A stretch of 27,395 bases of DNA from a virus. Its lineage: Duplodnaviria > Heunggongvirae > Uroviricota > Caudoviricetes. A program made the translations under genes and the position numbers. The notes under the pieces are model-generated. The model was given only the letters and a program-made list of their open reading frames with translations, was not told the origin of the DNA and did not search any database. How positions within the stretch are numbered: position 1 is the stretch's first letter; each line of letters starts with the position of its first letter. Below are positions 1,212 through 26,079 of this stretch, one piece after another. The stretch lies in IMG/VR virus record IMGVR_UViG_3300027770_000034; one strand, given 5' to 3'.

Positions 1212-2225
1212 ATGGGTAAAATAATAAGACTGACTGAATCTGAGTTAATTAGGTTGGTTAATCGTGTTCTTTTGGAAGAAGAAATGGAGGAAGGACTTCA
1301 TGACACATCATGGGAAAATGATGAGGGTGACAAAATAACCCTTATGGATTTATTAAATGCCACAGAAGATATACCTGTAGAAAAAATATCTGTAGAAGAA
1401 TTAAAACCACACCTATTAACTTGGGATGGTGATGAAAAAGAAGCCACCAAAATAGATAAGGCAGATTTACAATATCCAATCTTAATATTTGTTGAAGATG
1501 ATGGTTCTTTTATTTCAATAATTGACGGACATCACAGAGCACAAAAAGCAGTTAAAAATAAATTAAAAACTATTAAAGCTAAAGTAATACCAATTAATTC
1601 TCTACCCAAGAGTTTTAAAAAAGTTTTCGGTCACATGGGAAAACAAGAACAAAATGAAGGTGAAATGACCGAAGCCTGTTGGAAAGGTTATATTCAAAAA
1701 GGAATGAAGACAATGTTTGGAAAAAGATATCCAAACTGTGTGAAAAAAGAATCTGCAGGAGAAACTGATGAAGCTTCAAGTCCCGCGCAACAAGCGGCAA
1801 TTGCAATCAATATGAAGAAGAAGGGTAAAAAACCAAAGGTTATTGCCGTTACTGAAGAACAATTTGAAAGACTATTTGAATACAATGAAGAGATTCCCTC
1901 TTTAATGTATGAAGATGAGTTTGGTTCGGTTCAATCCATTGATTATAACAAAGAATTTATTAATGAAGCCGAATACCAAGGACGTAAGGTTCAACTGGGA
2001 AAGATTATGCAAGGTGATGTGAAGAAGTCCAAGGTATATGTTAAAAACGATAAGGGTAAGGTTGTTAAGGTTAATTTTGGGTTTGGTGGAAAATCTGCTC
2101 ATGGTAAAAGAATGACAATTAAGAAAAATAATCCTGCAAGAAGAAAATCTTTTAGAGCTAGAATGAATTGTGATAATCCTGGACCAAGATGGAAGCCACG
2201 TTATTGGGCATGTCGTACTTGGTAA
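1212..2225 (+). CDS. modular protein: LTE leader, ParB/Srx-like domain, CWKGY module, PAQQAAIAI module and C-terminal Cys/Trp basic module
   Basis: Likely start MGKIIRLTESEL at 1212 after TATTTATA (1190-1197). PILI...IIDGHHR is a ParB/sulfiredoxin-type motif. Later blocks are EACWKGY..NCVKK and KVYVKN..KVNFG..RKSFRARMNC..RYWACRTW. Confidence 0.8.
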   Translation: MGKIIRLTESELIRLVNRVLLEEEMEEGLHDTSWENDEGDKITLMDLLNATEDIPVEKISVEELKPHLLTWDGDEKEATKIDKADLQYPILIFVEDDGSFISIIDGHHRAQKAVKNKLKTIKAKVIPINSLPKSFKKVFGHMGKQEQNEGEMTEACWKGYIQKGMKTMFGKRYPNCVKKESAGETDEASSPAQQAAIAINMKKKGKKPKVIAVTEEQFERLFEYNEEIPSLMYEDEFGSVQSIDYNKEFINEAEYQGRKVQLGKIMQGDVKKSKVYVKNDKGKVVKVNFGFGGKSAHGKRMTIKKNNPARRKSFRARMNCDNPGPRWKPRYWACRTW

Positions 2226-2235
2226 ATAATATTTG

Positions 2236-2263
2236 AACCCCTCCCTTTAAGGTGGGGTTTTTT
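2236..2263 (+). terminator. intrinsic terminator
   Basis: AACCCC..GGGGTT stem followed by a T tract, just after the stop at 2225. Confidence 0.8.
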
Positions 2264-2285
2264 ATTTTTATTTGTATTTATTATT

Positions 2286-3278
2286 ATGCCAAATGTAATT
2301 GCATCCGCAACAACCGTATCTAATGGAACACTAAAAAGAAATAACTTTTTAATTGGTGTTGATACATCAGTACAATATGGACCAACTTCCGCAACCACTT
2401 TTTGGAATGGGATAGTACCTCCAACTAGTGGATATACAGTATATGCTCAAAAAGTATTACAAGGACCAAGTATTAGGACTGCAGCTAACGATTCTGAACT
2501 AATAATAATTGCAAAACAATACGGTGGAACAAACATTACGACAGTTTATGATGCGTTGAGTTACTTAAATAGTCAAACAAATTTTATGGTAACTAACATT
2601 GATTACCCAAGTATTGTAACGAGTGGGTTAACTTATTTATTGGATGGTGGATTTATTCCATCATATCCAAGAACTGGTACAACATGGAGTGATTTAAGCG
2701 GTAATGGAAATTCCACAAGTCTTGTTAACGGACCTACATTTAATTCCTCCAACGATGGTAGTATTGTGTTTGATGGGGTAAATGAATATGGATTAACCCC
2801 AAATTTATTAAATCCAACAACATTTCCAAATGAATCTGTATTTGTTTGGTTTTATCCTACCTCAGCAGGACAAATTGTGTCTGAATTGGGTCAGGCGGCA
2901 ATAAACACATTATGGCATGATTCCAATATTGAAATTAGTTCAGGTGGGTTGATTAGTTTTGCAACTTGGGGTGGTAATCTTACCAATAAAGTTGTTTCCA
3001 CTGCTAAGAGTTTTAATACTTGGTATAATTTAGGATTTACATATTCAGGAACAACTCTCACCGCGTATATTAATGGTTCAAGTATTGGAACTGCAACACT
3101 TACAAGACAAACAACAACAGCTCTATACTTTGGACTTTGTGCTATAAGTATTACAAATATGGGTACCGAAGGATATGCAGGAGGAAGAATGGGAAATTTT
3201 ATGTTTTATAACAGGGGATTATCTTCAACAGAAGTTTTACAAAACTATAATGCTCAAAAAACCAGATTTGGATTATAA
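2286..3278 (+). CDS. LamG/concanavalin-A-like domain protein, probable virion surface or fibre protein
   Basis: LDGG..SYPRTGTTWSDLSGNGN, FDGVNEY and FYNRGLSSTEVLQNYNA are typical of phage LamG-like proteins; Thr/Ser/Gly-rich. Confidence 0.75.
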   Translation: MPNVIASATTVSNGTLKRNNFLIGVDTSVQYGPTSATTFWNGIVPPTSGYTVYAQKVLQGPSIRTAANDSELIIIAKQYGGTNITTVYDALSYLNSQTNFMVTNIDYPSIVTSGLTYLLDGGFIPSYPRTGTTWSDLSGNGNSTSLVNGPTFNSSNDGSIVFDGVNEYGLTPNLLNPTTFPNESVFVWFYPTSAGQIVSELGQAAINTLWHDSNIEISSGGLISFATWGGNLTNKVVSTAKSFNTWYNLGFTYSGTTLTAYINGSSIGTATLTRQTTTALYFGLCAISITNMGTEGYAGGRMGNFMFYNRGLSSTEVLQNYNAQKTRFGL

Positions 3279-3283
3279 CAATT

Positions 3284-3559
3284 ATGAAAATTATTATAAC
3301 TGAACAACAAAAAAGAACAATTATGAATAAAAGTGATTGGAAAGAAGGTAACAATAAGCTTACCAAAACATATTATTTTAAAGATTACAAAGAAGTTATG
3401 CCATTTGTTAATTCGGTAATGAAAATTGCCGATAAACAAAATCATCATCCTGATATGACCGTTCACTATGATAATGTGAAATTATCTATTACTGACCACG
3501 ATAAAGGTGGTGTTTCTGAGAAATGTCATAAATTTGTGAATGCTGTAGATAAATTATAA
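3284..3559 (+). CDS. phhB: pterin-4-alpha-carbinolamine dehydratase (PCD/DCoH family) with a 13-aa ITE leader
   Basis: W..L.KTY.FKDY..F...V..IADKQNHHPD and TDHD motifs; leader MKIIITEQQKRTI precedes an internal Met. Confidence 0.85.
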   Translation: MKIIITEQQKRTIMNKSDWKEGNNKLTKTYYFKDYKEVMPFVNSVMKIADKQNHHPDMTVHYDNVKLSITDHDKGGVSEKCHKFVNAVDKL

Positions 3560-4832: not shown

Positions 4833-5186
4833 ATGAAATATCTTATTACAGAAAATAGATTGGAGAGTTTTATAACTTCCGTATTTGATAAGGACCTTAC
4901 TCCTGTAGGTGGATGGTGGTCTCATTCAAAAATCAAAAGAGAATTGAGAGGGTTTGAGGATGCTTTCCCCATTTATTATGATAAAGATTTTTATACTGAC
5001 TTGGCAGATAATGATTCCACCAAGTTTATGAATTATTTAAAGAAAGATGAAATTGTTGAACTTGAAGACCAATTGTATTACAAGTATGAAAGTATGTTTG
5101 AGGACTTATGGAAACCAGTATTTCTTAAATGGTTCAATCAACATTCGGGTCTTCCCATAGACCGTGTTCAATACGGATATTATTAA
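4833..5186 (+). CDS. ITE-leader small paralog-family protein
   Basis: MKYLITENRL start (MM from 4830 also possible); C-terminal FLKWFNQHSGLPI. Confidence 0.75.
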   Translation: MKYLITENRLESFITSVFDKDLTPVGGWWSHSKIKRELRGFEDAFPIYYDKDFYTDLADNDSTKFMNYLKKDEIVELEDQLYYKYESMFEDLWKPVFLKWFNQHSGLPIDRVQYGYY

Positions 5187-5655: not shown

Positions 5656-5675
5656 TCCACTTATATTTATAGTTA

Positions 5676-6044
5676 ATGAAATACATTATTACAGAATCAC
5701 AAATTAATAAATTGGTGTTCCTTTATTTGGATTCACAAGATTGGCATACGTGGGATATTGGTGACGGTGAGTTTAATGTTGCCGATGGACAATACGGTAA
5801 AGATGTAATGAAATTTAGAATTCAACAGTCAAGTAGAGTTTCTGACCATGAATTTAATGTGATATATATTAGTGATGATTTGGTTACAAAAATTAGCGAA
5901 TTATTTTCAATATCCTCAAAAAAATCCATCGGAGCAATAATTGATTGGTTTAACCAAAAGTATGATAAAAATTTAACCATGGATGATTTTGAATGGATGC
6001 CAAGTAGTGATACCTATTACGATGATGAAGAAGAAAATAATTAA
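5676..6044 (+). CDS. ITE-leader small paralog-family protein
   Basis: MKYIITESQINKLV; IIDWFNQKY; TATTTATA at 5664-5671. Confidence 0.8.
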   Translation: MKYIITESQINKLVFLYLDSQDWHTWDIGDGEFNVADGQYGKDVMKFRIQQSSRVSDHEFNVIYISDDLVTKISELFSISSKKSIGAIIDWFNQKYDKNLTMDDFEWMPSSDTYYDDEEENN

Positions 6045-6047: not shown

Positions 6048-6362
6048 ATGAAATACATTATAACAGAAAATAGAATGTTAGGGTTGGTTGACAAAATGGT
6101 TAAACAAGTTTGTCCTAAGTTTAATTATCGTGATACTAGTATTGCAACTTACAGCGGAGGAGACGATACGTTTTTAGAATATTATTCCGCAGATAATCCA
6201 GGAAAAACTTTTGCCAAGTATTATGTTTGGACAAATGAGTTACGACTTAATCGTGAATTATTTCATAAATTGGAGGATTATTTTGGAGAAGAAAAGATGT
6301 CATTTATTCTTGATTGGTTTAATAAAGAATTTAGCCAAGATGCTGACCATATAACACTTTAA
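6048..6362 (+). CDS. ITE-leader small paralog-family protein
   Basis: MKYIITENRM; FILDWFNKEF. Confidence 0.8.
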   Translation: MKYIITENRMLGLVDKMVKQVCPKFNYRDTSIATYSGGDDTFLEYYSADNPGKTFAKYYVWTNELRLNRELFHKLEDYFGEEKMSFILDWFNKEFSQDADHITL

Positions 6363-6364: not shown

Positions 6365-6664
6365 ATGAAATACATAATAACGGAAAGTAAATTAGATATG
6401 TTAATGACCGATTATTTGAATACTTGGGTAGGCTCAAGAAAATTAATTGAATTTGACAGGTTTATTGTGCTTGAAGACCCTTACGGAGAAGAAGAAAATG
6501 ATGTTGATATGGAATATGACGGTGAAGATGGTAGATTATGGGTTAGACAAGAACTTTTTGATACATTAGTAGATTTATTTGGTAAAGGTGAAAATGAAAC
6601 ATTAGACTTTATCGGAAAGTATTTTGAATATAAATTTGGAGTTCAAGTTGTTAAAGTAGAGTAA
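6365..6664 (+). CDS. ITE-leader small paralog-family protein
   Basis: MKYIITESKL; FIGKYFEYKFGVQV. Confidence 0.8.
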   Translation: MKYIITESKLDMLMTDYLNTWVGSRKLIEFDRFIVLEDPYGEEENDVDMEYDGEDGRLWVRQELFDTLVDLFGKGENETLDFIGKYFEYKFGVQVVKVE

Positions 6665-6976
6665 ATGAAATATATTATAACAGAAAATAGATTGGTTGAT
6701 ATAGTTGACAAGTATCTTGAAGATAGTATTGGAAGACTTAGAAAATTTCCTCTTGACCATATAAATGCCAGAGAAGATGACTTTGAACTTGCCGATGATA
6801 GTGGAGAAACAATTTTTACTTATTTTGATTATGGGTTAGGCGTTGAAGAAAATCTATACACTAAAATGATGTCGTTATTCAATTTGAATCATAAGGAATT
6901 AGAAAAACTTTTGGAAAAATGGTTCACTAAACATTATGATGGTATGGTACTTAACATATATCCAATTATAGAATAA
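6665..6976 (+). CDS. ITE-leader small paralog-family protein
   Basis: MKYIITENRL; LLEKWFTKHY. Confidence 0.8.
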   Translation: MKYIITENRLVDIVDKYLEDSIGRLRKFPLDHINAREDDFELADDSGETIFTYFDYGLGVEENLYTKMMSLFNLNHKELEKLLEKWFTKHYDGMVLNIYPIIE

Positions 6977-7676: not shown

Positions 7677-7699
7677 ATTTTCATTGGTATTTATATTAG

Positions 7700-8554
7700 A
7701 TGAAAAAAACGTTAACACTTACTGAAGAAAGAATCCAAAAAATTGTTTCTATTGTTAAAGAAGCAATCAATGATTATGCTGATGAAGATTATCTTGAAGC
7801 ATTTCTCATTACTTTCAGACAATGGATAACAGAAAAATTGGGTGACGAATCCAAAAAATATCCTCTATCTCTTCTTTTGAACAAATACGGAAACGAATTT
7901 GAAGACTCTATTGGTGTTAAGGATTCGTATTATGGTTACGATGATGATGCAACATATAGTCCTTATAGATTAAAAAGAGTTGCAAGAGATTTAGTAAAAA
8001 AAGGAAAATATGTTTTACCAAATCTAAGAGCGGAAGAAAAGTTCACAGAAAAGTATCAAAAAGTTATATCACACTTTTTAAAACAAATAGAAATTCCTGA
8101 TTATGTTACAGTAAAATTAAAAGAGGATAAACCTAATGAGATTACAATAGGAGCTGACGTTGATTTTCCAACGATGATTAAGCAACCAAAATATAAAAAT
8201 ATTAATATTAGTAATATACAACGTAAGTTGACAGAATATTTGGAAAGTTATTGTGGTGTTGAGTTTGGTAATCCAACATATGGAAAGGTATACATGACTA
8301 ACGATAAATTAAATTTTGTTGGGCTTGACGAGTGGGTTAAAAATGTTTTAAATAAAAAAATTAAGAAGGATATAAAAGCAATTGCGCCAAACCTTATACA
8401 TGCAATTAGATTTGAGGCGTATGGTGGAAAGGCAACCTTGAAGATTATTTTTAAAGATTCAGGATGGGGACGTAGAAATGATGCAATGAAAAAAATTAGA
8501 GAATACACTCAAAGCGAGGGATATAGTCCTGATGTTTTAGTGGTAGAATATTAA
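7700..8554 (+). CDS. LTE-leader hypothetical protein
   Basis: MKKTLTLTEERIQKIV; TATTTATA at 7688-7695. Confidence 0.8.
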   Translation: MKKTLTLTEERIQKIVSIVKEAINDYADEDYLEAFLITFRQWITEKLGDESKKYPLSLLLNKYGNEFEDSIGVKDSYYGYDDDATYSPYRLKRVARDLVKKGKYVLPNLRAEEKFTEKYQKVISHFLKQIEIPDYVTVKLKEDKPNEITIGADVDFPTMIKQPKYKNINISNIQRKLTEYLESYCGVEFGNPTYGKVYMTNDKLNFVGLDEWVKNVLNKKIKKDIKAIAPNLIHAIRFEAYGGKATLKIIFKDSGWGRRNDAMKKIREYTQSEGYSPDVLVVEY

Positions 8555-8844: not shown

Positions 8845-9237
8845 ATGAAATACATTATAACAGAAGACCAACATAATAAATTATTGGATATAATCCTAAG
8901 GTATCTTGATAGTAATCTTGTACCACAAGGTGGGTGGAAAAATAAAAAATATTATGAGAAGGAAATAGAAAGTGGTTATGAATTGTTTTTTATGTTTAAT
9001 ACAGAAGAAGAAGATTTTGGTTGGGGAGAGAGTGCGCATATGTGGTATTCATTGTGTGACAATCCAAATTTGGACCCACCACTACCTGAACATAAATGTC
9101 CTTTGATTACTGTTGATAGTACAAAGTATGATTCACTTGATGGATATTTTGGCCCAAGATGGCAAGAAACATTTAAAAGATGGTTTACAAAACATACAGG
9201 ATTACCTGTGGTTCACGTAGAACGTCAAAATTGGTAA
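8845..9237 (+). CDS. ITE-leader small paralog-family protein
   Basis: Start set at MKYIITEDQH, just after the TAG at 8841-8843; tail FKRWFTKHTGLPV resembles 16125..16499. Confidence 0.8.
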   Translation: MKYIITEDQHNKLLDIILRYLDSNLVPQGGWKNKKYYEKEIESGYELFFMFNTEEEDFGWGESAHMWYSLCDNPNLDPPLPEHKCPLITVDSTKYDSLDGYFGPRWQETFKRWFTKHTGLPVVHVERQNW

Positions 9238-9268
9238 TGTTTATTAAGGTTAGTAATATTTATTAATT

Positions 9269-10003
9269 ATGAAAAGAAAACTTAGATTAACAGAATCCGA
9301 CTTAGTGAATTTAGTCGGAAAAATTATACAAGAACAGTCATATGAAGAAAGTGCATTTGAGGAACATATGGGAACAATAGACCATATCGCAAATCACTTT
9401 AACAATGAAACAACTGAAGATGAATTAGATTTTATGTTAACTCAAATTGAATATGAATTAGATTCCGCAGTAAGAGGTGGTGAATTAACTGATGATGAAC
9501 TTGAAGAACTTCACGATTATGCAAATGATATTGCAAGAGAGTTGGAAATGGAATTTAATTCTTTTGATAATTTAAATGAAGGTACTAAGGCTAAAAAGCC
9601 AAAAGCCGTGAGAAGTAAGAAGTCAGGAGTTAAAACTCAAAAGACAATTAACCAAAATCATGATGTATTGAAAAAATTGGTTAAAGAAGAATTGGAGAAT
9701 GATGACGAAGAAGAAGAGGAGGAAGAAATGCATCCATCACTTCAGAGACAACTTAGACATTTTGACCCAGATGAATTTACCCTCTTAGGTAGAATTAAAG
9801 TAGTCCCAAATCCACCATCAAAAACCCCTAGTTTTATTTTAAGAAATAAAAATAAAACAGAGGACGGAACAAAAATAATTGGTTTAGGTTTTGGATATGA
9901 AGATAAAGTTGTAAAATTAACAGGAGTAACGAAAAACGGAAAACCACCAAGTTTTCAAAATCCACTGAAACTAACAAAAAGACCACAAGTATTATCAAGA
10001 TAG
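9269..10003 (+). CDS. LTE-leader protein with acidic and basic low-complexity blocks
   Basis: MKRKLRLTESDLVNLV; Glu/Asp-rich N-half, KAKKPKAVRSKK block, poly-E run; TATTTATT at 9257-9264. Confidence 0.8.
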   Translation: MKRKLRLTESDLVNLVGKIIQEQSYEESAFEEHMGTIDHIANHFNNETTEDELDFMLTQIEYELDSAVRGGELTDDELEELHDYANDIARELEMEFNSFDNLNEGTKAKKPKAVRSKKSGVKTQKTINQNHDVLKKLVKEELENDDEEEEEEEMHPSLQRQLRHFDPDEFTLLGRIKVVPNPPSKTPSFILRNKNKTEDGTKIIGLGFGYEDKVVKLTGVTKNGKPPSFQNPLKLTKRPQVLSR

Positions 10004-10587: not shown

Positions 10588-10884
10588 ATGAAATATGAAA
10601 TAAGCCAAGACAAGTTGAATAAATTGGGAGCAAATGTTTTGGATGACATTTATGGACCATTACACACCGAAAAAGACGGTAATCGTTATTTTGATGATAA
10701 TGGTAAGGGAAGAATTCATGTAAGAAAAAACATACCTTATATTCTCTTTAAAGACTATCAGAAAATGTCATCGGCAATTGAGGTGAACACTGGTGTTTGG
10801 GCACAAATTATTCAGTATTGGTTAAAGGATAGATACGGTAGAAATTTATTTGATGAATTTGCTTGGTTAAGTTATGATATCTAA
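10588..10884 (+). CDS. small paralog-family protein with a variant leader (MKYEISQDKL)
   Basis: Start after TATTTATT (10577-10584); tail IIQYWLKDRYG. Confidence 0.75.
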   Translation: MKYEISQDKLNKLGANVLDDIYGPLHTEKDGNRYFDDNGKGRIHVRKNIPYILFKDYQKMSSAIEVNTGVWAQIIQYWLKDRYGRNLFDEFAWLSYDI

Positions 10885-12169: not shown

Positions 12170-12781
12170 ATGACTATTTTAATCTCAGAAGACCAATACG
12201 AAAAATTAATTAAGGCGTCTCTCAAACGCCATGCTAAAGATACAGAAACTAATGTTAAAGGAGGGATGTTCAACGTTAATGGACACCTTGTAAAATATAG
12301 TGTTGTAAATCGTAAGGGGGAATCAATTTACGTTAATTATAATTACGATGAACAAAAACGTATGGTCTATATTATGACCGACGAAAACTTCATCAAACTT
12401 AGTAAGAAAGAACAGGAAGATGCTATTGAATTCAGAATCAAGAAAGACATACAAAAAAAATCAAAATTAGACTTTATAACCGAATCAGACTCCATGAATT
12501 GGTTGAAGAGAAGAGCTAACAAAGAGTCTATGAAAAAATATATCACGAATGCAGAAATAAATTTTCCAACATTATGTGATGATTTTAATGATGAGTTTGA
12601 ATTTGCCGATAATATCATAAATTACGCGGTGGATGAATTTATGACAATTGATGAAGATATTTTTTTAGATGATAAATTTGACGAGGTAAATGAAATAATT
12701 ACTGGTATGTGTGAAGAATGGTTTAGTGAATATCTTTTTGATATTTATAGAACAACTTGTTCGGAGGAAAATGGATATTAA
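12170..12781 (+). CDS. ISE-leader two-module hypothetical protein
   Basis: MTILISEDQYEKLI; internal DFITE|SDSMNWLKRR precedes an acidic second module; TATTTATT at 12158-12165. Confidence 0.75.
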   Translation: MTILISEDQYEKLIKASLKRHAKDTETNVKGGMFNVNGHLVKYSVVNRKGESIYVNYNYDEQKRMVYIMTDENFIKLSKKEQEDAIEFRIKKDIQKKSKLDFITESDSMNWLKRRANKESMKKYITNAEINFPTLCDDFNDEFEFADNIINYAVDEFMTIDEDIFLDDKFDEVNEIITGMCEEWFSEYLFDIYRTTCSEENGY

Positions 12782-13207
12782 ATGAAAGACTTAATTAAAA
12801 AAATATTGAGGGAGGGAATGCAGATTGGTGATGATGCCCCTGATTGGGTTAAAGAATTTCACACGCTACCGAGAGAAGGAAGAATTGCTTTAATTAAAAA
12901 AAATAAAAAACAAATTGAAAAACTATTACCAAGAATTGTTGAATTTTTTGAGAAAAAACTTGGAGACAACCTTGTACAACTCAAAGTAACTAATGAAGAA
13001 GGAACTAGAGGAAGATACTACGGAAATGAAAGTTACTCAACGAATGCAATTCTTTTACAGTTTTTTTTCCATAACCGCACTCCAAATGTAACAACACTAA
13101 AAAAAGAAATAATTAATGACCTTAAATCATTTTTTAATATACACTGGGACTATTATGGTATGCCATTAGATTTGGATTTCTATAAAGCGGTTTATGAAAA
13201 ATTTTAA
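12782..13207 (+). CDS. hypothetical protein
   Basis: 141-aa ORF starting MKDLIKKILREG, directly after the upstream stop. Confidence 0.75.
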   Translation: MKDLIKKILREGMQIGDDAPDWVKEFHTLPREGRIALIKKNKKQIEKLLPRIVEFFEKKLGDNLVQLKVTNEEGTRGRYYGNESYSTNAILLQFFFHNRTPNVTTLKKEIINDLKSFFNIHWDYYGMPLDLDFYKAVYEKF

Positions 13208-13208: not shown

Positions 13209-13451
13209 ATGAAATACGTTATAACAGAAAGACAACATAGAATTTTAGAAAAAACTATAAATGAACAATTTGATAGTGAAAGACTATATTCAAAAAAAGA
13301 AATCTTAAGATTACTTAAAGGTGCCCCAAGAGAGTTAAAACAAATTGCAAAAAACCTTCCAAACATACCTTGTGAAAATGACAATGGTGAAAGAACGATT
13401 TGCACAAAAATACCAGAAACTATTCACGTTTATTTGACAGGTAGATATTAA
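13209..13451 (+). CDS. ITE-leader hypothetical protein
   Basis: MKYVITERQHRILEKTINEQ; start placed just after the upstream stop at 13207. Confidence 0.75.
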   Translation: MKYVITERQHRILEKTINEQFDSERLYSKKEILRLLKGAPRELKQIAKNLPNIPCENDNGERTICTKIPETIHVYLTGRY

Positions 13452-13961: not shown

Positions 13962-14651
13962 ATGGGTAAAAAATTTAAAGTTAGACTTACTGAGCAAGAA
14001 TTTGGTGAATTATTAGCCAAATCTTTAATAGATAAAATTTTAGGCGGAGGACTTAATAAAGATGAGATAAAGAAAATGCTTTCAAGTGAAGTACCAAGCA
14101 AAAGTAATACAACTGGAGGCACAGGTGCTGGCGAATTCAAAGAAGTAGATTTAAATAGTTCTGAAGGATACAACGCATATAAACAAATTGCTGATAAATT
14201 TATTCAAAATAGGTCATCTAATCTTTTAGGTATTACTGGTGATATGTTAGCAACTGCCGCCAAAAATACTTTTAATAAGTATAAAAAATATGTTCCCGTT
14301 GAATTATCTCTTGCCCAATTAGCAGCTGAAGGAGGATTTTCAAGTAATCCAAATGCAAGACCAATCAAAACAAAGAATCCATATAATGTTGGAAACACAG
14401 ATAATGGAAAAAACATAACCCACCCATCAGTTCAAGACGGTATTCAAACGTATTATGATTTAATTGCAAGAAGATATCTTGCGGGCAACAAAACAGCATC
14501 AGATTTAGTTAAAAATTTCGTAAATGCTGATAATCAAAGATATGCGGGAAGTGGTTACGAAGATTTAGTTAGAAAAATTGTTGGTCAAGCTAAAAATATG
14601 TCAGAACCGATATTTGCTTCACTAACTAAAAAAGGTTCCGATATTGCATAA
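13962..14651 (+). CDS. LTE-leader protein with a GH73/glucosaminidase-like (lysozyme-fold) peptidoglycan hydrolase domain
   Basis: AQLAAEGG (catalytic Glu position), NPYNVG, S..DGIQTYYDLI and RYAG resemble FlgJ/GH73 motifs; leader MGKKFKVRLTEQEF. Confidence 0.7.
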   Translation: MGKKFKVRLTEQEFGELLAKSLIDKILGGGLNKDEIKKMLSSEVPSKSNTTGGTGAGEFKEVDLNSSEGYNAYKQIADKFIQNRSSNLLGITGDMLATAAKNTFNKYKKYVPVELSLAQLAAEGGFSSNPNARPIKTKNPYNVGNTDNGKNITHPSVQDGIQTYYDLIARRYLAGNKTASDLVKNFVNADNQRYAGSGYEDLVRKIVGQAKNMSEPIFASLTKKGSDIA

Positions 14652-14924: not shown

Positions 14925-15518
14925 ATGAAAATCATAATAACAGAAGGTCAGTACAATAGACTTAATAAAAGTAGTCAAAGTATTACAAATGCTATTATCA
15001 AATATATGAACGAATATATTGGTAAGGGCGAAAGAAAGATTACTAAGCAATCTCGTAATTATGGAAATTTTCGTGAGGATTGGTGTATTAATGGAAAAGA
15101 AACTATTTCAGCCTTTTATTATTTTGAAAAAGGTGAATTCCAAAAAGGGAGTTTGTTAATCTCAAAAAAAATAATAGAAAGCCTTTCTAATTTATTGAGT
15201 ATAAGACGTTCCTATGTTATTCATGTAATTGAAGAATGGTATGATAATACTGTGGTTCCAAAATTTGAAGAAATTGTTGGTGAGTCAGGATTATCAATTA
15301 ATGATGTAGATGTATTGGATAAAGAACATCCTTGTAGACAAGAACCTGTCAAGCCAAAGGGAATTACAGACGAAGAGATGATAGACTACATAGTCAATAA
15401 TACTCTATATTATAAAGATGATGTTATCGGTAAAATAGAATCAGGAGAAAGAGACCTTGATGACTTTTACTTGGACATTGTTGATACAGTTAAACGTAAA
15501 GAACAATTAGGATTTTAA
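14925..15518 (+). CDS. ITE-leader paralog-family protein with a C-terminal extension
   Basis: MKIIITEGQYNRL; VIEEWY; TATTTATT at 14913-14920. Confidence 0.8.
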   Translation: MKIIITEGQYNRLNKSSQSITNAIIKYMNEYIGKGERKITKQSRNYGNFREDWCINGKETISAFYYFEKGEFQKGSLLISKKIIESLSNLLSIRRSYVIHVIEEWYDNTVVPKFEEIVGESGLSINDVDVLDKEHPCRQEPVKPKGITDEEMIDYIVNNTLYYKDDVIGKIESGERDLDDFYLDIVDTVKRKEQLGF

Positions 15519-15519: not shown

Positions 15520-16125
15520 ATGAAAATTATAATAACAGAACAACAGGCCAACGAATTATTAACGTCAAGGCTTGAAGACATGTTTAATGGTTATGAAACT
15601 AAATTTGAAGGAGACTTAAGAAACATTTATGTTAATGGTAAACTTATGGCTCAATTGGGTCCATCAAGTGGTATTGTTTCTTTAGATGCGTTTAATGAAT
15701 TAAAAGACAATTTATTTTTTAACTCTGATAAAGATTTAAGAGATGATGTTGCTGATTGGGTCAGGAATAAATTTAAGTCCAAAAATAATATTGGAAAATA
15801 TGGAATTTCATTTAAAAAATTACATGGGCAAGAAAGAGATTTACCAAAAAAACCAAAAAAACCTCATCACGCCACACGTCAAGATAAATTAGAACCAGGA
15901 TTTAATCTTAATGCGTTTAAAGAAAGAACAGGTAACATTGAAACAAAACTTAAAAATAAAGAAGATTTAATTCGTGCAGCAAAAGCAAAAATGAATCCTG
16001 ATAGTTTTCAGAATTGGTGGAAAAGAGATACGGACAAACATAATGAAAGAGAGAAAAAAGAAAAAGAAAAACAATTATCGGATATATCTAAAGCGGTTGC
16101 CAAATTAAAAACCGACAATAAGTAA
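15520..16125 (+). CDS. ITE-leader paralog-family protein with a basic C-terminal extension
   Basis: MKIIITEQQANELL; VADWVRNKF; Lys-rich tail. Confidence 0.8.
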   Translation: MKIIITEQQANELLTSRLEDMFNGYETKFEGDLRNIYVNGKLMAQLGPSSGIVSLDAFNELKDNLFFNSDKDLRDDVADWVRNKFKSKNNIGKYGISFKKLHGQERDLPKKPKKPHHATRQDKLEPGFNLNAFKERTGNIETKLKNKEDLIRAAKAKMNPDSFQNWWKRDTDKHNEREKKEKEKQLSDISKAVAKLKTDNK

Positions 16126-16499
16126 TGAAATATATAATCACAGAGTCAAAATTTGAGAATTTAGTTATTGAGTATCTTGATAAAATGTTTGACGTTACTG
16201 ATATAAATTGGACAAATCCTTACGACATAATAGATGATGAAACAGGTGAAGAAGGCGATGATGAAAGTAGAATTTTATTTTATATTGGTGACTACAACGG
16301 AGGTGATGATAGATGTTTTATGTGGTATGGTTGCGAATATTTTGATAAAGGAAGTAAAGCAAGAGAACTTTGTCCAATAGTACAACTTGAGCATCCATAT
16401 GATATTCAACTTAATGGATATTTTGACGATAAGTGGCACGAACCATTCAAAAAGTGGTTCACTAAAAACTTTAATTTACCTGTCAAAACTATAGAGTAA
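16125..16499 (+). CDS. ITE-leader small paralog-family protein
   Basis: MKYIITESKFENLV; FKKWFTKNFNLPV. Confidence 0.8.
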   Translation: MKYIITESKFENLVIEYLDKMFDVTDINWTNPYDIIDDETGEEGDDESRILFYIGDYNGGDDRCFMWYGCEYFDKGSKARELCPIVQLEHPYDIQLNGYFDDKWHEPFKKWFTKNFNLPVKTIE

Positions 16500-17524: not shown

Positions 17525-17525
17525 A

Positions 17526-17550: not shown

Positions 17551-17593
17551 CAAAATAGTAAAACCCTAATGTAAAAAAAATAAAACCATAATG

Positions 17594-18234: not shown

Positions 18235-18251
18235 ACTTTATTTTTTTGTTT

Positions 18252-18662
18252 TTATACGTGTGAAGCATCAAAGATTAATTCTTCTAATCCTTGTTTCTTT
18301 CTATAATCATTTATTGCGGATTTAATGGCATCCTCCGCTAAAACACTACAATGGATTTTAACGGGTGGTAGGTTTAATTCTTCTACCAATTCCATATTGT
18401 CCATTTTAATTGCTTCGTCTAACGTCATACCTTTCAACCACTCCGTTGCTAACGAAGATGCGGCAATCGCGCTTCCACAACCAAATGTTTTGAATTTTGC
18501 GTCGGTTATAATATTGTCGTTTACTTCAATTTGAAGTCTCATCACATCGCCACATTCTGGTGCTCCAACTAATCCTGTGCCAACGTTTGATTTTGATTTA
18601 TCTAATGTCCCAACATTTTTTGGGTTTGAGTAATGGTCAATGACCTTATCTGAATATGCCAT
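18252..18662 (-). CDS. iscU: Fe-S cluster scaffold IscU
   Basis: YSDKVIDHY.NPKNVG, GAPECGD, FKTFGCGSAIA and LPPVKIHCSVLAEDAIK. Confidence 0.95.
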   Translation of the reverse strand: MAYSDKVIDHYSNPKNVGTLDKSKSNVGTGLVGAPECGDVMRLQIEVNDNIITDAKFKTFGCGSAIAASSLATEWLKGMTLDEAIKMDNMELVEELNLPPVKIHCSVLAEDAIKSAINDYRKKQGLEELIFDASHV

Positions 18663-18665
18663 ATT

Positions 18666-19562
18666 TTAAAAATTAAATCCTAATCCTAAATATAAATCCT
18701 TTCTAAAGGGGTCATAATCTGCGGATAATGACCATGATTTATAATCATGAGTTAAACCAACACTCATTGTAGCAAAATCATCAGCAAAGTTCTTGAAAGA
18801 ATATCTTCCATTGTTTGATAAAATGTAGGTACCATCAAAATATTGGTATTTTTCGTTTTCGTATCCAAAACCAAATGAAATGTTAGCTCCAAAGTTTTTA
18901 AATTCTTTACCAAGACCTAAATACATAGACCACTCGTCTCTGATGTCATTTAATTTGTAATTTTGAGAAGGGTTATTTAATAACCAAGGTCTAACAACAT
19001 CCATGGTTATGTTTGTATAGAAAGTTGATTGGTCGGCATATACTGTTTTGTTGAAAGATGCTTTAAAATAAACATCTCGACCCACGGTAAACCATCCACC
19101 AATTTTATTTTTGTTTGAAAGGTTTAAACCAACTCTAATTTTATTTTGTTTACTGTATATAGTGTCTTGAGTGTTGTCAAGTTTATAATAAACTCTTGCA
19201 GGTGCTCTATAACCAAATCTGTCAAAATAATAGAAGTCATAATAACTTCTGTATTGAAAAGGCGCTCCCCATCTATTCCATCTATTATAATAAGGTGTGT
19301 TATAATTATAAGGATTTCTTGGACCAATATTATAATTTGGTGTTGTACCTAAATTATAATTTCGTGTATTATTTTCAGTTCTAATTTGAGTTTTTTGTTG
19401 ATACTCATTTGGACGAGAAATTGGTGATGAAGTTTGAGGCTGGGATTGTGGTTGGGATTGTGGTTGAGTACCCCCACTTCTGATGACTTCTTTTTGTTGT
19501 CTTTCAGTTTGTCCTAATATTACCATTGGTAATAAAAGAAGAATTAATATTATTTTTTTCAT
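18666..19562 (-). CDS. secreted protein, putative outer-membrane beta-barrel
   Basis: Signal peptide MKKIILILLLLPMVILG|Q; low-complexity Q/P/N/Y N-region; alternating hydrophobic/Gly strands; ends YLGLGFNF with terminal Phe. Confidence 0.6.
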   Translation of the reverse strand: MKKIILILLLLPMVILGQTERQQKEVIRSGGTQPQSQPQSQPQTSSPISRPNEYQQKTQIRTENNTRNYNLGTTPNYNIGPRNPYNYNTPYYNRWNRWGAPFQYRSYYDFYYFDRFGYRAPARVYYKLDNTQDTIYSKQNKIRVGLNLSNKNKIGGWFTVGRDVYFKASFNKTVYADQSTFYTNITMDVVRPWLLNNPSQNYKLNDIRDEWSMYLGLGKEFKNFGANISFGFGYENEKYQYFDGTYILSNNGRYSFKNFADDFATMSVGLTHDYKSWSLSADYDPFRKDLYLGLGFNF

Positions 19563-19600: not shown

Positions 19601-19885
19601 ATGCGTAAGATAATATTAACAGAATCTCAGATTAAAAAATTAACAGAACAAGGCTTAAATTCTGTTGCAATGGACTTAGATATCTACACACAACCAACTC
19701 AAATAGATACAAATAATGGAAATTTGGATGTGGAAGAGACAATTGAAAATATAATTACAAAATTAGAAGAAGTTTTATCTATGTTTAAAACAGGGAAAAA
19801 AGTACACCCTGAATTAAAAAATAGATTTTTTGGTATTTTAGATAGTATTAATTCAAATTTTGAAAATATTAAATACGAAGACTAA
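19601..19885 (+). CDS. LTE-leader hypothetical protein
   Basis: MRKIILTESQIKKLTEQ. Confidence 0.8.
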   Translation: MRKIILTESQIKKLTEQGLNSVAMDLDIYTQPTQIDTNNGNLDVEETIENIITKLEEVLSMFKTGKKVHPELKNRFFGILDSINSNFENIKYED

Positions 19886-20277: not shown

Positions 20278-20480
20278 TGAAAGTAAGAGGTTTATTTGTT
20301 AAAAGACCCTCAAGAAAATTAACTTGGACTCGTGAGGACTACGTCTTAGGAAAAAATTGGGCGAAGAGTCAACCTCATCCATTTATAAAAAACAAAACTC
20401 TTTGGGATTTATGTTATGACAAACAGGAGTCCACTTACACGATTGATAATTTAAATAAGTTTTTATTTAACGAAATTTAA
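20277..20480 (+). CDS. hypothetical protein
   Basis: Start moved to MKVRGLF at the TAATG coupling. Confidence 0.6.
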   Translation: MKVRGLFVKRPSRKLTWTREDYVLGKNWAKSQPHPFIKNKTLWDLCYDKQESTYTIDNLNKFLFNEI

Positions 20481-21114
20481 ATCCTGTAAGTTTTTCAATA
20501 TCTTTTTTATCAACTAGATTGTTATGAATACCATCTGGTTTGGAGGTGTCGTTGTTAAACAAAAATGACATCCATTCTTTTGTTTTTACAAAATATATTA
20601 CCTTCCAACATTGTGTCGGAACGGATACTTTTCCAATTTTTTTTGTAACTCCTATATTTCCACACCATACGTGAACTGAATCATCTTTCTTAGCCCACTC
20701 CCTTTCCATCGTCTCAACAGATTTCCAATCACCAGCATTTAAACTATGATATTGTGGTGACATGTTAGAAAAATAAAAACATTCATCTTGGATTGCAGAA
20801 GTTTGACATAAATTTTGAGCTGCTGGCATCATATGACCCCTATCGGTACCACTACCAACGTAATCTTTTGCTAAATCAGTTTCTAATGGTAATAATGGGT
20901 CTGGTTTGAAATTATCTTTTCTGGGCAATGGTTTTTCGCAATTTACCTTTGCTTTTGTAATCCACCACTCAACCATAACAGGGTAATATTTGGATTTTGA
21001 AAAGTGTGATGTATAATTTGTGTGTTTTAATACGACAACGTCTTGTGCTTGAGAGCTTATGCCTATTAGTATAATACTAAAAAGTATAAAAAGGTTCTTG
21101 GTAATTTTTTTCAT
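20467..21114 (-). CDS. secreted DNA/RNA non-specific endonuclease (NucA/Serratia-type His-Me finger)
   Basis: DRGH catalytic motif, FYFSNMSPQ..LNAGDW..VE; signal peptide ending SSQA|Q. Confidence 0.9.
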   Translation of the reverse strand: MKKITKNLFILFSIILIGISSQAQDVVVLKHTNYTSHFSKSKYYPVMVEWWITKAKVNCEKPLPRKDNFKPDPLLPLETDLAKDYVGSGTDRGHMMPAAQNLCQTSAIQDECFYFSNMSPQYHSLNAGDWKSVETMEREWAKKDDSVHVWCGNIGVTKKIGKVSVPTQCWKVIYFVKTKEWMSFLFNNDTSKPDGIHNNLVDKKDIEKLTGFKFR

Positions 21115-21864: not shown

Positions 21865-21899
21865 TAAAGACAAATTAAAACTTCACTATATTTATTAAC

Positions 21900-22397
21900 A
21901 TGGGAAAAAGATTTGAAATAACAGAATCAGATAAGCAACAAATACAAAAAATGTATTTAATTGAGCAATCTGAACAAAAAGATGACAAAAAGTTTTGTCA
22001 TGGTGGAAATGTTAGGTCTTTAGAAGAAATCATGGGAGATGATGAAACTGAAGATTACATTGATGGAGTTCAATTGAGAAAAAATGGTGTTAACGGGTTA
22101 GTTGACAGACTTGAACTTTTAAAAACATCAAGACTACATCCAAAAATTTCTGATGGTGGTGAACATTTGGCTTATGGTCTTATGAACATGTTGAAAAATC
22201 ACAAACCATATCATTATTTTGATGAAACTAAAAAAGAATGTGGAACTGCAATGGATAAAATCATTGAGTTGTATAAAGAAAACGAACACGGAGAAGAATT
22301 GGTTAAAGATATAGAAAAAGTTTATGGTATGCAACATGTTGCTCCAAGAGCAAAAGAATTTTTAAAACATTCTCTCGGAATGATTAAAGGTCAATAA
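21900..22397 (+). CDS. ITE-leader hypothetical protein
   Basis: MGKRFEITESDKQQIQKMYLIEQ; TATTTATT at 21889-21896. Confidence 0.8.
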   Translation: MGKRFEITESDKQQIQKMYLIEQSEQKDDKKFCHGGNVRSLEEIMGDDETEDYIDGVQLRKNGVNGLVDRLELLKTSRLHPKISDGGEHLAYGLMNMLKNHKPYHYFDETKKECGTAMDKIIELYKENEHGEELVKDIEKVYGMQHVAPRAKEFLKHSLGMIKGQ

Positions 22398-22456: not shown

Positions 22457-22843
22457 ATGTCAACTCAATCACATATAGACAAGGTTAATCTTCAACCAAT
22501 GAAGATGGAATATCCTGCACATGTTGGCGCCCCAAAGATTGAACCACAAGATTTAACGGCCTTTAAAAATCACGGTCTAAACAAAGTGGACCGAGTAATG
22601 AAGAAAAGATACGATGAGCTCGTTAAAGAGGTAGAAACCCTTCAAAATTCCATGATGATAAATCAACAGGTCTACGAGTCAAACTACAAATTTGAACCAA
22701 AAATTGGGGAAGTATATCACTTATACGAGGATTTTAATGGTGGTAAGACATTGTCTATCATTGGACCCACGGAATGGAATAAAAAACACTTATACTCGGT
22801 AGTCTTTAATTCAGATATGACATGGACAAAATTGCCAGAATAA
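22457..22843 (+). CDS. DUF2452-like protein
   Basis: YPAHVGAPKIEP and FEPKIGEVYHLYE..LSIIGPTEW resemble the DUF2452 family, from memory and not searched. Confidence 0.6.
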   Translation: MSTQSHIDKVNLQPMKMEYPAHVGAPKIEPQDLTAFKNHGLNKVDRVMKKRYDELVKEVETLQNSMMINQQVYESNYKFEPKIGEVYHLYEDFNGGKTLSIIGPTEWNKKHLYSVVFNSDMTWTKLPE

Positions 22844-23109
22844 AACGACTTGTTGAGTCTTCGTTGGACACCTCCTTCGGAGGGGAAATATCTATTGTGA
22901 GTATTCAGATACTTCCTACGCAAAAATATGACGAAGGGACAAAAGAATGGGTTCCTGATTCTCACTCCATTTTTTTAAACCTCAAAGACAAACGGAATTC
23001 AGAAAATAACCCTAATTATTATCACTTCGTTTCAGACCATCCATCGTACAAAGTTTCTAATCTATTGGAAAGCTTATTGGGTTTTGAGTGTTGTGTGGAT
23101 TTTGTGTAA
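22822..23109 (+). CDS. hypothetical protein
   Basis: 95-aa ORF overlapping the upstream gene, followed by a terminator. Confidence 0.65.
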   Translation: MDKIARIKRLVESSLDTSFGGEISIVSIQILPTQKYDEGTKEWVPDSHSIFLNLKDKRNSENNPNYYHFVSDHPSYKVSNLLESLLGFECCVDFV

Positions 23110-23558: not shown

Positions 23559-23559
23559 T

Positions 23560-24816
23560 ATGAAAAAAATAATTAAATTAACGGAGTCCGATTTAGAAAA
23601 AATTGTTAATAAAATAATAATTGAGCAAGGAAATATGTATGGAACTGCTGGAGTTGGGATGACAAGTCCATTTATGGATTGGAAAAGTTATAGTGATAGT
23701 CGTAAACAACCAGTAAACAAAAACATAAATCCTAAAGGGTTAAAATTAGGTGATGGGGGTAATAAAAACCCTCAAAAAATTGAAGATGTAAAAAAACTAC
23801 AACAAAAATTGATGGACCTTGGATATTTGGTGACAAATACAATGATTCCTTCAGGATATTTCGGAAGTTTGACTAATAATGCATTGAAAGCGTTTTATTC
23901 GGGGGCAGAGCCCACAAACAAGAAAAAACAAACATCAGGTAAAGAAGTTGTTGGAACACAATCTAAAAAAACAACAGGTAAAGTTGATACGAATAAAAAA
24001 ATAACGGATTTCAAAGACTTAAAAGTTTCAAATCAAGTCAAAGCTCAGTTAAATTATATGAAATCCAATAATCTTCTAAATGCAGAGAAATTCACAATTT
24101 TGGATGATAAAAATTCACAAGTACACGCATTCTTACCAGGGTACAAACTATCCCGTACTTATTATGTTATTACTGGTAAAAATAAAGGGGACCAATTAAA
24201 AACTCAAACAATGACTGATTGGGCGATGAAAAATTGGACTGACGTAGGGGCAAAGTTTTTTAGTTCAATTTTTAATCAAACTAAGAACTTAGCTACAACA
24301 GGTAACGCTAAAAATCCTTTAAATGATGTTGCTAATTATATTGACGGTTGTTATTTTAATCAAAAAGAATGGAATTTAAAAAATACCCCATCTGGCGTGT
24401 TTAAAAGGGCTGGTAATATTAAAAACTTTATGAACGATTTATTAGCCACTACATTTGTTGAGGAAGATTACGGTGCTAGATTTGTTACGTGGGAAACATG
24501 TGATGGTACTACAATACCTTTTGGATTTCATGGTACCAAATCAGAGGGAAGAATAAAAAATCTTCCTGGAGGAGAAAATTTCTCAAAAAAACAATGTACT
24601 AAAAGAAAAATGAGTTTTGGGTGTATAAACTTTGGTGATGCCGATGTTAAAGAAATAAGTTCATTTATTACAGAAGGACAATTGAGTATTTGGTTACCTG
24701 ATGCATCAGATAACATTGTTGAAATTCCGAGTACTTGTGTGTCAGGGTCAGGTCCACAAAAATCTATTATGTCTTATGACTATATGACACAAAAGTATGG
24801 GAAAGGATTTAAGTAA
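23560..24816 (+). CDS. LTE-leader protein with a peptidoglycan-binding domain and a YkuD/L,D-transpeptidase-like domain
   Basis: LKLGD..EDVKKLQQKLMDLGY..GYFGSLT.NAL (PG-binding type 1); VITGK, TPSGVF, GFHGT..SFGCIN (His/Cys catalytic pair). Confidence 0.75.
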   Translation: MKKIIKLTESDLEKIVNKIIIEQGNMYGTAGVGMTSPFMDWKSYSDSRKQPVNKNINPKGLKLGDGGNKNPQKIEDVKKLQQKLMDLGYLVTNTMIPSGYFGSLTNNALKAFYSGAEPTNKKKQTSGKEVVGTQSKKTTGKVDTNKKITDFKDLKVSNQVKAQLNYMKSNNLLNAEKFTILDDKNSQVHAFLPGYKLSRTYYVITGKNKGDQLKTQTMTDWAMKNWTDVGAKFFSSIFNQTKNLATTGNAKNPLNDVANYIDGCYFNQKEWNLKNTPSGVFKRAGNIKNFMNDLLATTFVEEDYGARFVTWETCDGTTIPFGFHGTKSEGRIKNLPGGENFSKKQCTKRKMSFGCINFGDADVKEISSFITEGQLSIWLPDASDNIVEIPSTCVSGSGPQKSIMSYDYMTQKYGKGFK

Positions 24817-24821: not shown

Positions 24822-25259
24822 TTATTTATTATATCTTTTCTTATATCCTCTTGTGTCAATGTGTATCATGTGCCTTGTAAAATATCCTTTGGTTGTATAA
24901 GTACCTAAAGCACCAACCAAATCAGGGTCAGTTGATTCAACATATTTATTTGCCGACTCAAAAATTTTAATATCTTTTGAATTAAAAATTCCATCACCGT
25001 TTAAGTCAATAACATAAATGTCAATTGCTTCTCCTATAATATGATAAGAATCTTTGGCAGAATTAGATAATAAACTATTATACCATGAATGTCTTTTACC
25101 ACTAATTATGAACCAATTGTTATTATAACCCCTTTTAGAAATTTCATTTTCAATCAATTTTAATTTATAATTTACTTGAGAATTCCCTGGTAAAAAGAAT
25201 AAAATCTTAATTAAAATAAAAATAACAACGGTAATTAATACTTTTGTAATGGTTTTCAT
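24822..25259 (-). CDS. membrane-anchored M15-family (YcbK-like) zinc peptidase
   Basis: N-terminal TM; SGKR, SYHIIGEAID and HIDTRG give His/Asp/His zinc ligands. Confidence 0.75.
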   Translation of the reverse strand: MKTITKVLITVVIFILIKILFFLPGNSQVNYKLKLIENEISKRGYNNNWFIISGKRHSWYNSLLSNSAKDSYHIIGEAIDIYVIDLNGDGIFNSKDIKIFESANKYVESTDPDLVGALGTYTTKGYFTRHMIHIDTRGYKKRYNK

Positions 25260-25273
25260 ATCTGTAATTTTTA

Positions 25274-25307
25274 CAAAGATAGGGAAATATTTTGATTAAA
25301 CATCAAA
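25274..25307 (-). promoter_or_regulatory. Bacteroidota-type promoter for the M15 peptidase gene
   Basis: Minus strand TTTG (25307-25304), 22-nt spacer, TATCTTTG (25281-25274). Confidence 0.5.
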
Positions 25308-25583
25308 CCTTACATAAGTTTTTACTGAACATTCAGGAAAAAAATAGACCATAGCATCTTGAATCAATACATCGGCAAGAGCCCTATCCATATGTTCTTC
25401 AGTAATTAAGTCACCAAGAACAATGACGGCTTCCATGAAAATACTTTGTTGTGTTACTGAGAAATTCAGATTGTGGATTTTGATACGAGAACCTTTACCA
25501 TACATTTCTTGTACTGATTTACCTTGATAATCATTAATGTACAATTCAATTAGGCGATAGAGTCTTCGTTTCTTATCTGACAT
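25296..25583 (-). CDS. hypothetical protein
   Basis: 95-aa ORF, co-oriented with its neighbours. Confidence 0.7.
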   Translation of the reverse strand: MSDKKRRLYRLIELYINDYQGKSVQEMYGKGSRIKIHNLNFSVTQQSIFMEAVIVLGDLITEEHMDRALADVLIQDAMVYFFPECSVKTYVRFDV

Positions 25584-25619
25584 GATAAAAATATAGCAAA
25601 TTAGTTTAGATATTGAAGG

Positions 25620-25748
25620 TTATCGTCCTTGTCCTCTATATGCTTTTAATTTTGGAGAATGTTTGTTGTGAGATTTTTTAGCCGAGCCTGTTTTTCTTTT
25701 ACCGAAACTTAATTTTGTTGATTCCCCTGACGATTTTCCTTTTGCCAT
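25620..25748 (-). CDS. 42-aa highly basic protein (not in the ORF track)
   Basis: MAKGKSSGESTKLSFGKRKTGSAKKSHNKHSPKLKAYRGQGR*; minus-strand TATTTATC at 25771-25764. Confidence 0.7.
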   Translation of the reverse strand: MAKGKSSGESTKLSFGKRKTGSAKKSHNKHSPKLKAYRGQGR

Positions 25749-25788
25749 AAATTAGATTTTGTTGATAAATACACTTATATTTATGAAT

Positions 25789-26079
25789 ATGATGATTACT
25801 GAAGAAGAAAAAAAAGAATTATTATCTAAATATTCTGGTGACACTTCAGATGAGCTATTAACTCATCTGAAAAGACATTTTCCTGTTACAGAAATTAAGT
25901 ATGATTGGATGACCGAACCTGTACAATTTATTCAAGTTGATGACAAATCAAGATTGATAAAAAACAATAAAAAATACTTGGTTGGTTTTATCTATAATCT
26001 TCTTGAAAATAGTTGGATTTCACTTGGTGAAAAAAAAATTCGTAGAACAATTAAAAAATATTTGGACGGAATAAAATAG
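25789..26079 (+). CDS. ITE-leader hypothetical protein
   Basis: MMITEEEKKELL; follows TATTTATG at 25778-25785. The start could be 25783, 25789 or 25792. Confidence 0.7.
   Translation: MMITEEEKKELLSKYSGDTSDELLTHLKRHFPVTEIKYDWMTEPVQFIQVDDKSRLIKNNKKYLVGFIYNLLENSWISLGEKKIRRTIKKYLDGIK

Follow-up and report, generated by a model that had tools for sequence, protein, structure and literature searches.

Portable N-Terminal Leaders Ending in Hydrophobic-x-Glu in an Uncultured Phage: A Candidate Expanded Capsid-Targeting System

Results

Leader Genes of the Window

The stretch of DNA analysed here (the window) is the whole of the IMG/VR virus record IMGVR_UViG_3300027770_000034, 27,395 nucleotides of a Caudoviricetes virus with 31% G+C and a densely coded plus strand. 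An 81-kb contig from a lake metagenome ends with the same DNA, and the window is most likely the end of the genome, about 300 kb long, of an uncultured freshwater T4-type jumbo phage. Our subject is a set of short N-terminal peptides, here called leaders or tags, that end in a hydrophobic residue, any residue, and Glu, and that head many of the proteins encoded in the window. An initial annotation, made from the sequence alone, had listed 21 such gene starts. All are ATG, the open reading frames (ORFs) encode 80–418 residues, and the N-termini are as it described them, except that 10588 carries ISQ and not ITE at the site.

The leader modules that we distinguish are MK[YI]IITE (7 residues; class A is MKYIITE), MKK..LTESDL..IVKRVIxE (22 residues; class B), M.KRF.[IL]TE....I.K.Y[LM][IV]E, and MKDLIKKILRE. 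Each class ends in hydrophobic-x-Glu; below, a slash marks the position after the site Glu. All leader genes of the window lie on the plus strand. MKYIITE heads a family of small proteins at 4833..5186 (there as MKY[IL]ITE; 117 residues), 5676..6044 (122 residues, with the box TATTTAT 5 nt before the ATG), 6048..6362, 6365..6664, and 6665..6976 (internal cistrons for proteins of 104, 99, and 103 residues), 8845..9237 (130 residues), and 16125..16499 (124 residues). A degenerate member, 10588..10884, begins MKYEISQ and has no Glu at the site. MKIIITE is the leader of a 197-residue protein at 14925..15518 and, as MKIIITEQQ, of a 201-residue protein at 15520..16125. It also begins the gene at 3284..3559, which encodes pterin-4a-carbinolamine dehydratase (PCD). 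Here the enzyme assignment is borne out (Pfam Pterin_4a, E = 1.7e-20), but the domain starts at residue 7, so that only the heptapeptide is extra. Orthologues begin MKYIITE, and whether the heptapeptide of 3284 is a tag or a native N-terminus is ambiguous.

Class B leaders are present at 1212..2225 (MGKIIRLTESELIRLVNRVLLEE, on a 337-residue multidomain protein, with TATTTATA about 18 nt upstream), at 9269..10003 (ending KIIQE/Q and followed by an acidic linker in a 244-residue protein), and at 23560..24816 (MKKIIKLTESDLEKIVNKIIIE/Q, on a 418-residue protein with PG_binding_1 and a YkuD-like domain). Class B-like leaders begin a 284-residue protein at 7700..8554 (MKKTLTLTEERIQKIVSIVKE; a terminator and then TATTTAT lie upstream) and the protein encoded at 13962..14651, in which the leader is followed by a variable linker rich in Ser and Thr and then by a GH73 glucosaminidase-like domain. 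A ParB-like protein had been proposed for 1212; the middle of that protein is weakly ParB/Srx-like, and the call has weak support. The two proposed cell-wall enzymes fared differently: 23560 exceeds the Pfam cut-off for PG_binding_1 and falls just under that for YkuD, while 13962 is GH73-like only by an Atlas look-alike search (feature score 0.95, TM 0.74). Profile searches of PDB and NCBIfam with 13962 gave nothing, and its AF2 model is poor (pLDDT 53). A search of viral contigs with the 418-residue protein of 23560 found no relative.

The remaining leaders are MTILISE at 12170..12781 (203 residues, the C-terminal cargo having three other leaders elsewhere), MKYVITE...TINE/Q on an 80-residue cargo at 13209..13451, MRKIILTE...KKLTE/Q at 19601..19885 (94 residues, with TATTTATA upstream), the class D leader MGKRFEITESDKQQIQKMYLIE/Q at 21900..22397, and the class D-like MMITEEEKKELL at 25789..26079 (96 residues; the start may be 25783, 25789, or 25792). 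The 165-residue protein of 21900 is highly conserved, with 1249 homologues, and both of its Glu sites are invariant in all 120 homologues compared. A second site of the form [IL]-x-E-Q, as had been noted, is present in 9269, 13209, 19601, 21900, and 23560. The initial annotation had passed over a further leader type at 12782..13207, where MKDLIKKILRE/G resembles the start of T4 gp24, MAKINELLRE/S; 22822..23109, with the possible leader MDKIARIKRLVE/S, is a candidate picked by eye.

Relatives and Excess of the Motif

A scan of IMG/VR for every coding of MKYIITE gave at least 119 loci and at least 177 matches. Among the matches listed, nearly all are true ORF starts, of 90–550 residues, on contigs of about 30% G+C and up to 321 kb. 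Two relatives are complete: G001 (309 kb), syntenic with the window between 13.4 and 25.5 kb at 35–77% amino-acid identity, and G002 (294 kb), which is more distant. Both have a T4-type head module, in which portal, protease, and acidic scaffold accompany a capsid protein matching T4 gp23. In a closer fragment (L047/L096), four leader genes, the PCD orthologue among them, adjoin the head module. A tblastn search of 50,697 phage records with the leader proteins and a 27-residue leader gave no match and so no cultured carrier.

The motif M-x(0-8)-[ILV]-[TS]-E stands at 22 of the 56 gene starts of the window, against 1.1 expected from the internal frequency of [ILV][TS]E (binomial p = 4e-23). Run as a regular expression over all ATG-started ORFs, it matched 21 distinct gene starts on the plus strand and, by chance, a single one on the minus strand, that of IscA at 17926. 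The baseline rate is about 2%, as judged from Flavobacterium phage immuto (3 of 124 ORFs in 90 kb) and T4 (2 of 79 ORFs in 50 kb, namely Alt and its partial duplicate). G001 and G002 have 34 matching genes each, out of about 400.

The leaders had been said to sit on about 21 unrelated proteins. The shared leader stands, but the number of unrelated proteins was put too high. The products of 4833, 5676, 6048, 6365, 6665, 8845, 10588, and 16125 still match each other after removal of the first 25 residues; this eight-member family has a diverged domain of about 120 residues with a conserved C-terminal F..W...F..WF (alignment A1, 25 sequences). Since 9269 and 13962 are also weakly similar to each other at their C-termini and the rest are unrelated, there are about 13 independent types of cargo. 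In the AF2 model of the small-family member 16125 (pLDDT 87.5), residues 1–6 form an unpacked coil of lower confidence. Foldseek comparison of this model with PDB gave nothing below E = 0.3, and in BFVD the fold matched solely proteins of uncultured phages.

Exchange of Leaders on the Same Cargo

When the genes of G001 and G002 were clustered by N-terminal similarity, additional leader classes emerged, such as MNLQEHIRKVLREE; 12782 belongs to a class of this kind. In related contigs, shared cargo has differing leaders or none, and homology stops directly after the hydrophobic-x-Glu site. Thus the cargo DPKTGTGKKPKG... is preceded by ...RVINE/S, ...EELLNE/S, or ...MGVITE/G, depending on the contig. 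The cargo of 13209 is found behind MKYVITE...TINEQ, behind MRTIVKLNENDL...VIKEQ, without a leader, or behind the internal ENITEQ of a fused protein. That of 7700 has a class B leader in one contig and leader A, MKYIITENHL...LISEQ, in another. The cargo of 14925 occurs with MKDLIRKVLREE in a relative, its distant homologues having that leader or MNLHEHIKKVLREE in place of MKIIITE, and the YkuD-like cargo of 23560 has MKYLITESQYNFLLEQ (leader A) in L059. These exchanges bear out the proposal of a portable tag at the level of the protein. The tags most likely double as recombination points, and the shuffling of cargo would follow from this.

The edge of the module is sharpest for class B. A scan for MKK..LTESDL gave at least 148 unique ORFs, of which 146 with at least 70 residues were compared. 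Pairwise identity among these listed ORFs is 53–57% at positions 13–22, which the search pattern does not constrain, drops to 10.6% at positions 23–27, and then reaches a background of 6.5%; Glu22 is conserved in 94% of them. For class A, homology past the heptapeptide decays gradually, with no abrupt edge. In viral contigs there are at least 139 unique class A and at least 146 unique class B ORFs, identity in the latter being at background past the leader, and among the matches listed the heptapeptide and the 22-residue leader head well over 100 unrelated ORFs of 35–550 residues. The distance from the first to the second Glu site, taken over 2,800 unique ORFs, peaks at 8–9 and at 12–13 residues and therefore points to discrete leader architectures.

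Some relatives encode fused proteins with two cargoes, at L012:7162-7851 (minus strand), L054:1372-1926 (plus strand), and L015:3188-3898 (minus strand). Their internal junctions retain a remnant of a leader (GKLTESKNQYVISEGKL, ENITEQ), as would be expected if genes had fused at the leader or if the product were a polyprotein cut at internal Glu sites. In G001 (192136-196188, L153), four late genes adjoining the capsid-protein gene share another common start, ..EEKNRILNLHESA.K..YL.EQ, and 2 of the 4 run on into proline/threonine-rich stretches. Leader-bearing cargo elsewhere includes polyphosphate kinase 2 (PPK2; L130:5806-6903 in G002, 1.8e-72), a phage lysozyme with LysM (L122:9648-10520), and a tail-type lysozyme with SH3 (L043:1887-2741).

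Conservation of the Peptide

It had been proposed that the peptide rather than the DNA is conserved, and the codons agree. In codons 2–7 of 131 unique class A genes, among the matches listed, every synonymous codon occurs. The K, T, and E codons of the leader follow the usage of the gene bodies; only Tyr3 and Ile5 deviate somewhat. Judged by this codon usage, selection acts on the leader peptide. Leaders also occur both on promoter-proximal genes and on internal cistrons without a promoter of their own. As to the two biased positions, Tyr3 is TAC in 55% of the 131 genes (18% in gene bodies) and Ile5 is ATA in 62% (33% in bodies), a bias that may keep TATTTAT-like boxes from arising within the first codons.

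Late-Gene Signal

In G001 and G002, the genes for portal, protease, scaffold, head completion, sheath, and tube have TATTTAT no more than 70 nt upstream, whereas it precedes none of 13 replication or nucleotide-metabolism genes (ssb, recA-like, exonuclease, dnaB, nrdA/B, and thyA). The structural genes of the cultured phage immuto are likewise preceded by it. Because it distinguishes these two sets of genes, the box marks late genes. In the window it precedes leader genes and the likely structural genes 2286, 3578, 7025, and 26798, often just after a strong terminator (23 terminator-like sites, 8.2 expected). With a crude definition of the unit, TATTTAT heads the units of 61 of 68 leader genes, as against 464 of 733 other genes. 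Judged by their promoter box, the leader genes would be expressed late, together with the head genes. A scan of the window for sigma-70-type promoters, which does not extend to those of Bacteroidota, gave 97 sites against 108 expected and thus no signal.

The spacing of the box varies. It ends 4–6 nt before the ATG in many genes, with or without a leader, and 15–35 nt before it in structural genes. Short-spaced copies lie in the window at 5660-5678, 7684-7702, 9253-9271, 10572-10590, 13946-13964, 14909-14927, and 21884-21902. If transcription starts a few bases past the box, as at T4 late promoters, the corresponding mRNAs would have almost no 5′ leader.

Prohead Protease and Cut Sites

A protease that could act on the leaders, for which the initial annotation had suggested a search, is encoded by the relatives. 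Peptidase_S77, the T4 gp21 type, was found in all 5 of the large MKYIITE-carrying records searched and also in the closer fragment L047/L096. The predicted cut site of the relatives' capsid protein, aligned with that of T4, reads YLINE/A or YLINE/S, and many class B leaders share this ending (VINE/S, IINE/S). A complex predicted between the G001 protease and residues 1–45 of the 21900 family scored 0.00, which counts neither for nor against binding.

ITE and LTE are genuine gp21 cleavage motifs on packaged T4 proteins. Alt, an enzyme that is packaged and injected, is trimmed at both ends, by 6 residues at the N-terminus, at ITE-6, and by 63 at the C-terminus, at LTE-619 (PMC5694885). The T4 record gives Alt MELITE/L, gp23 FLTE/A (LTE-65), gp24 MAKINELLRE/S, gp21 LLIE/T, and gp67 GLIE/A; by PDB mapping, mature gp23 begins at residue 66. 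The parallel to T4 stands, though not with the sequence that had been named for it, that of IPII/IPIII: no leader class resembles that sequence, the likeness being confined to length, amphipathic character, and the terminal I/L-x-E, and the propeptides of Alt (MELITE) and gp24 (MAKINELLRE) are closer.

Host and Neighboring Genes

The phage probably infects a member of the Bacteroidota, since the best cultured-phage match to the capsid protein is that of Flavobacterium phage immuto (44%), Shine-Dalgarno sequences are lacking, and signal peptides end in ...SFSQ. Signal peptides of the Bacteroidota style are found on proteins at 10198-10539 and, on the minus strand, at 18666-19562, 20467-21114, and 24822-25259. 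Among the signal-peptide proteins of the window are a DNA/RNA non-specific endonuclease (2.4e-38) and, as the possible endolysin, a small M15-like peptidase; unlike these, the leader-bearing peptidoglycan enzymes have no signal peptide. A block on the minus strand, 16946-19562, carries a set for iron-sulfur cluster assembly, IscU (NifU_N, 4.9e-50), a 4Fe-4S ferredoxin, and IscA, together with a 298-residue signal-peptide protein and an HNH endonuclease. ARAGORN found no tRNA in the entire window, so that a tRNA-like element at 26282-26373 is at best non-canonical.

Discussion

The leaders, their portability, the conserved terminal Glu, the late-gene signal, and the protease of the relatives resemble the way in which T4 addresses proteins to its head. 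We think it probable, from these features and by analogy with T4, that the leaders constitute the capsid-targeting propeptide system of T4 in an enlarged form with several classes. On this model, the tag would bind its protein to the scaffolding core during prohead assembly, a gp21-type protease would cut after the Glu, once or twice, and the freed cargo would remain in the head and exit with the DNA at the next infection.

Several observations weigh against such a system. Eight of the 21 leader genes are one paralog family, and one of these, 10588, has lost the Glu of its site. In the small family, helix 7–21 forms part of the fold, which leaves a separable tail of just 7 residues, shorter than the 10-residue T4 signal, though near the 6-residue propeptide of Alt. 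The N-terminus of PCD fits a domain that begins at residue 7 and could be native. ITE need not be a cut site, because Thr/Ser-Glu is a common start of helices. Protease and capsid protein are known from relatives and not from the window's own genome, and the genomes tested for the protease are all of one lineage, so that its co-occurrence with the leaders is not independent evidence. As injected effectors, PCD, PPK2, and several peptidoglycan hydrolases would not be an obvious choice. We found no close cultured relative with virion proteomics, and packaging and cleavage are predictions from the sequence.

The explanation that best survives beside a capsid-targeting system is that the leaders are a module for interaction or assembly that has nothing to do with the inside of the capsid and is never removed by proteolysis. 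An amphipathic helix might dock late proteins on a partner that they share, from phage or host, such as the membrane, a chaperone, or the exterior of the virion, or might oligomerise them. The leaders are indeed amphipathic helices, several cargoes act on peptidoglycan, which would suit a location at the envelope, and cleavage of the leaders is a prediction. We nevertheless regard it as unlikely: it leaves unexplained why hydrophobic-x-Glu marks the module edge in every class, with Glu22 kept at 94%, why I-T-E-Q is kept at the internal junctions of fused proteins, and why the leaders match processed N-termini of T4.

Ordinary shared ancestry would explain less. A paralog family would have been duplicated in tandem and its N-terminus spread to neighbors by recombination, the leader itself having no function. 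The eight tandem genes of one domain family, in which the first helix is part of the fold, fit this history, as does the gradual decay of class A homology. It is hard to reconcile with the occurrence of the heptapeptide and the 22-residue leader on well over 100 unrelated ORFs of 35–550 residues or with the swapping of leaders on orthologous cargo, and neutral spread would not keep the two Glu sites of the 21900 homologues invariant; we consider it quite improbable. Least of all do we expect a signal in the RNA, by which an A/T-rich start region would serve the initiation of leaderless or nearly leaderless mRNAs in a host without Shine-Dalgarno pairing: TATTTAT often lies just 4–6 nt before the ATG, Shine-Dalgarno sequences are missing, and Tyr3 and Ile5 show some codon bias, but all synonymous codons occur, substitutions are conservative in the protein (I/L/V, T/S, K/R), 21 of the 34 leader genes of G001 have no TATTTAT within 80 nt, many genes without leaders are spaced equally short, and class B is conserved across 22 residues.

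If the capsid-targeting tags load cargo, they provide a sequence handle on which proteins travel in the capsid and act first in the host. T4 internal proteins include anti-restriction and host-takeover factors. The tagged set is ten times that of T4 and almost wholly uncharacterised; if loaded, it would offer many candidates for counter-defence and entry proteins. For phages of Bacteroidota, tags of 7 to 22 residues might also be tried as a means of getting engineered cargo packaged.

A more far-reaching proposal, which is possible although we ourselves hold it doubtful, is that freshwater T4-type jumbo phages give about one-tenth of their genes to capsid cargo addressed by a small code of interchangeable leader classes, some of them cut twice, with fused multi-module proteins split at internal I-x-E-Q and a payload that includes peptidoglycan hydrolases, PPK2, and PCD. 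Were such a code to exist, the class of its leader might determine how many copies of a protein are loaded, where in the head they lie, or in what order they are released, and the injected proteome of thousands of uncultured phages might be read from sequence.

Comparison with Known Systems

The closest precedent is the capsid-targeting sequence (CTS) of the T4 internal proteins IPI, IPII, and IPIII (Mullaney and Black 1996). The 10-residue CTS suffices for packaging, and the T4 internal proteins share little else (PMC9026906; PMC3012670); a T4 review anticipates the idea of T4-like phages acquiring diverse proteins by means of the CTS (PMC9026906). The likeness lies in a short N-terminal peptide on otherwise unrelated proteins, ending in L/I-x-E, in a gp21-type protease in the phage (seen here in the relatives), and in hypervariable genes with shuffled cargo. 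The leader sequences described here, however, are unrelated to the T4 internal-protein leader, form at least four classes and not one, and in some cases have two Glu sites. There are 20–45 tagged genes per genome as compared with three to five in T4, the probable host belongs to the Bacteroidota, and the function is predicted from sequence.

Other T4 propeptides are nearer in detail. MELITE/ of Alt has nearly the same length and ending as MKYIITE/, MAKINELLRE/ of gp24 resembles MKDLIKKILRE/, and FLTE/A of gp23 resembles RLTE/S. The propeptides of Alt, gp24, gp21, gp67, and gp23 belong to one protein each, whereas here the same peptide is reused on dozens.

In phiKZ, 201phi2-1, and SPN3US, propeptides of head and ejection proteins are cut at S/A-x-E by a gp21-related protease (PMC5694885, PMC10052503). 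These are likewise jumbo phages that package many proteins processed after Glu, with multiple sites per propeptide, and the SPN3US paralogs gp53 and gp54 have identical N-termini. The P3 residue is small there and aliphatic here, and the propeptides there are long and protein-specific; for these three phages no reusable short tag over dozens of unrelated cargoes has been described. Nor did we find in the literature a paper on reusable leaders at such a scale or in several classes.

The arrangement of the genes recalls the mobile regulatory cassettes of the PeSL type in T4-type phages, which are units of one gene each, flanked by terminator and promoter, within a hyperplastic region. The leader genes differ from these in that the promoter is a late-type TATTTAT box and the handle for recombination includes a protein-coding leader.

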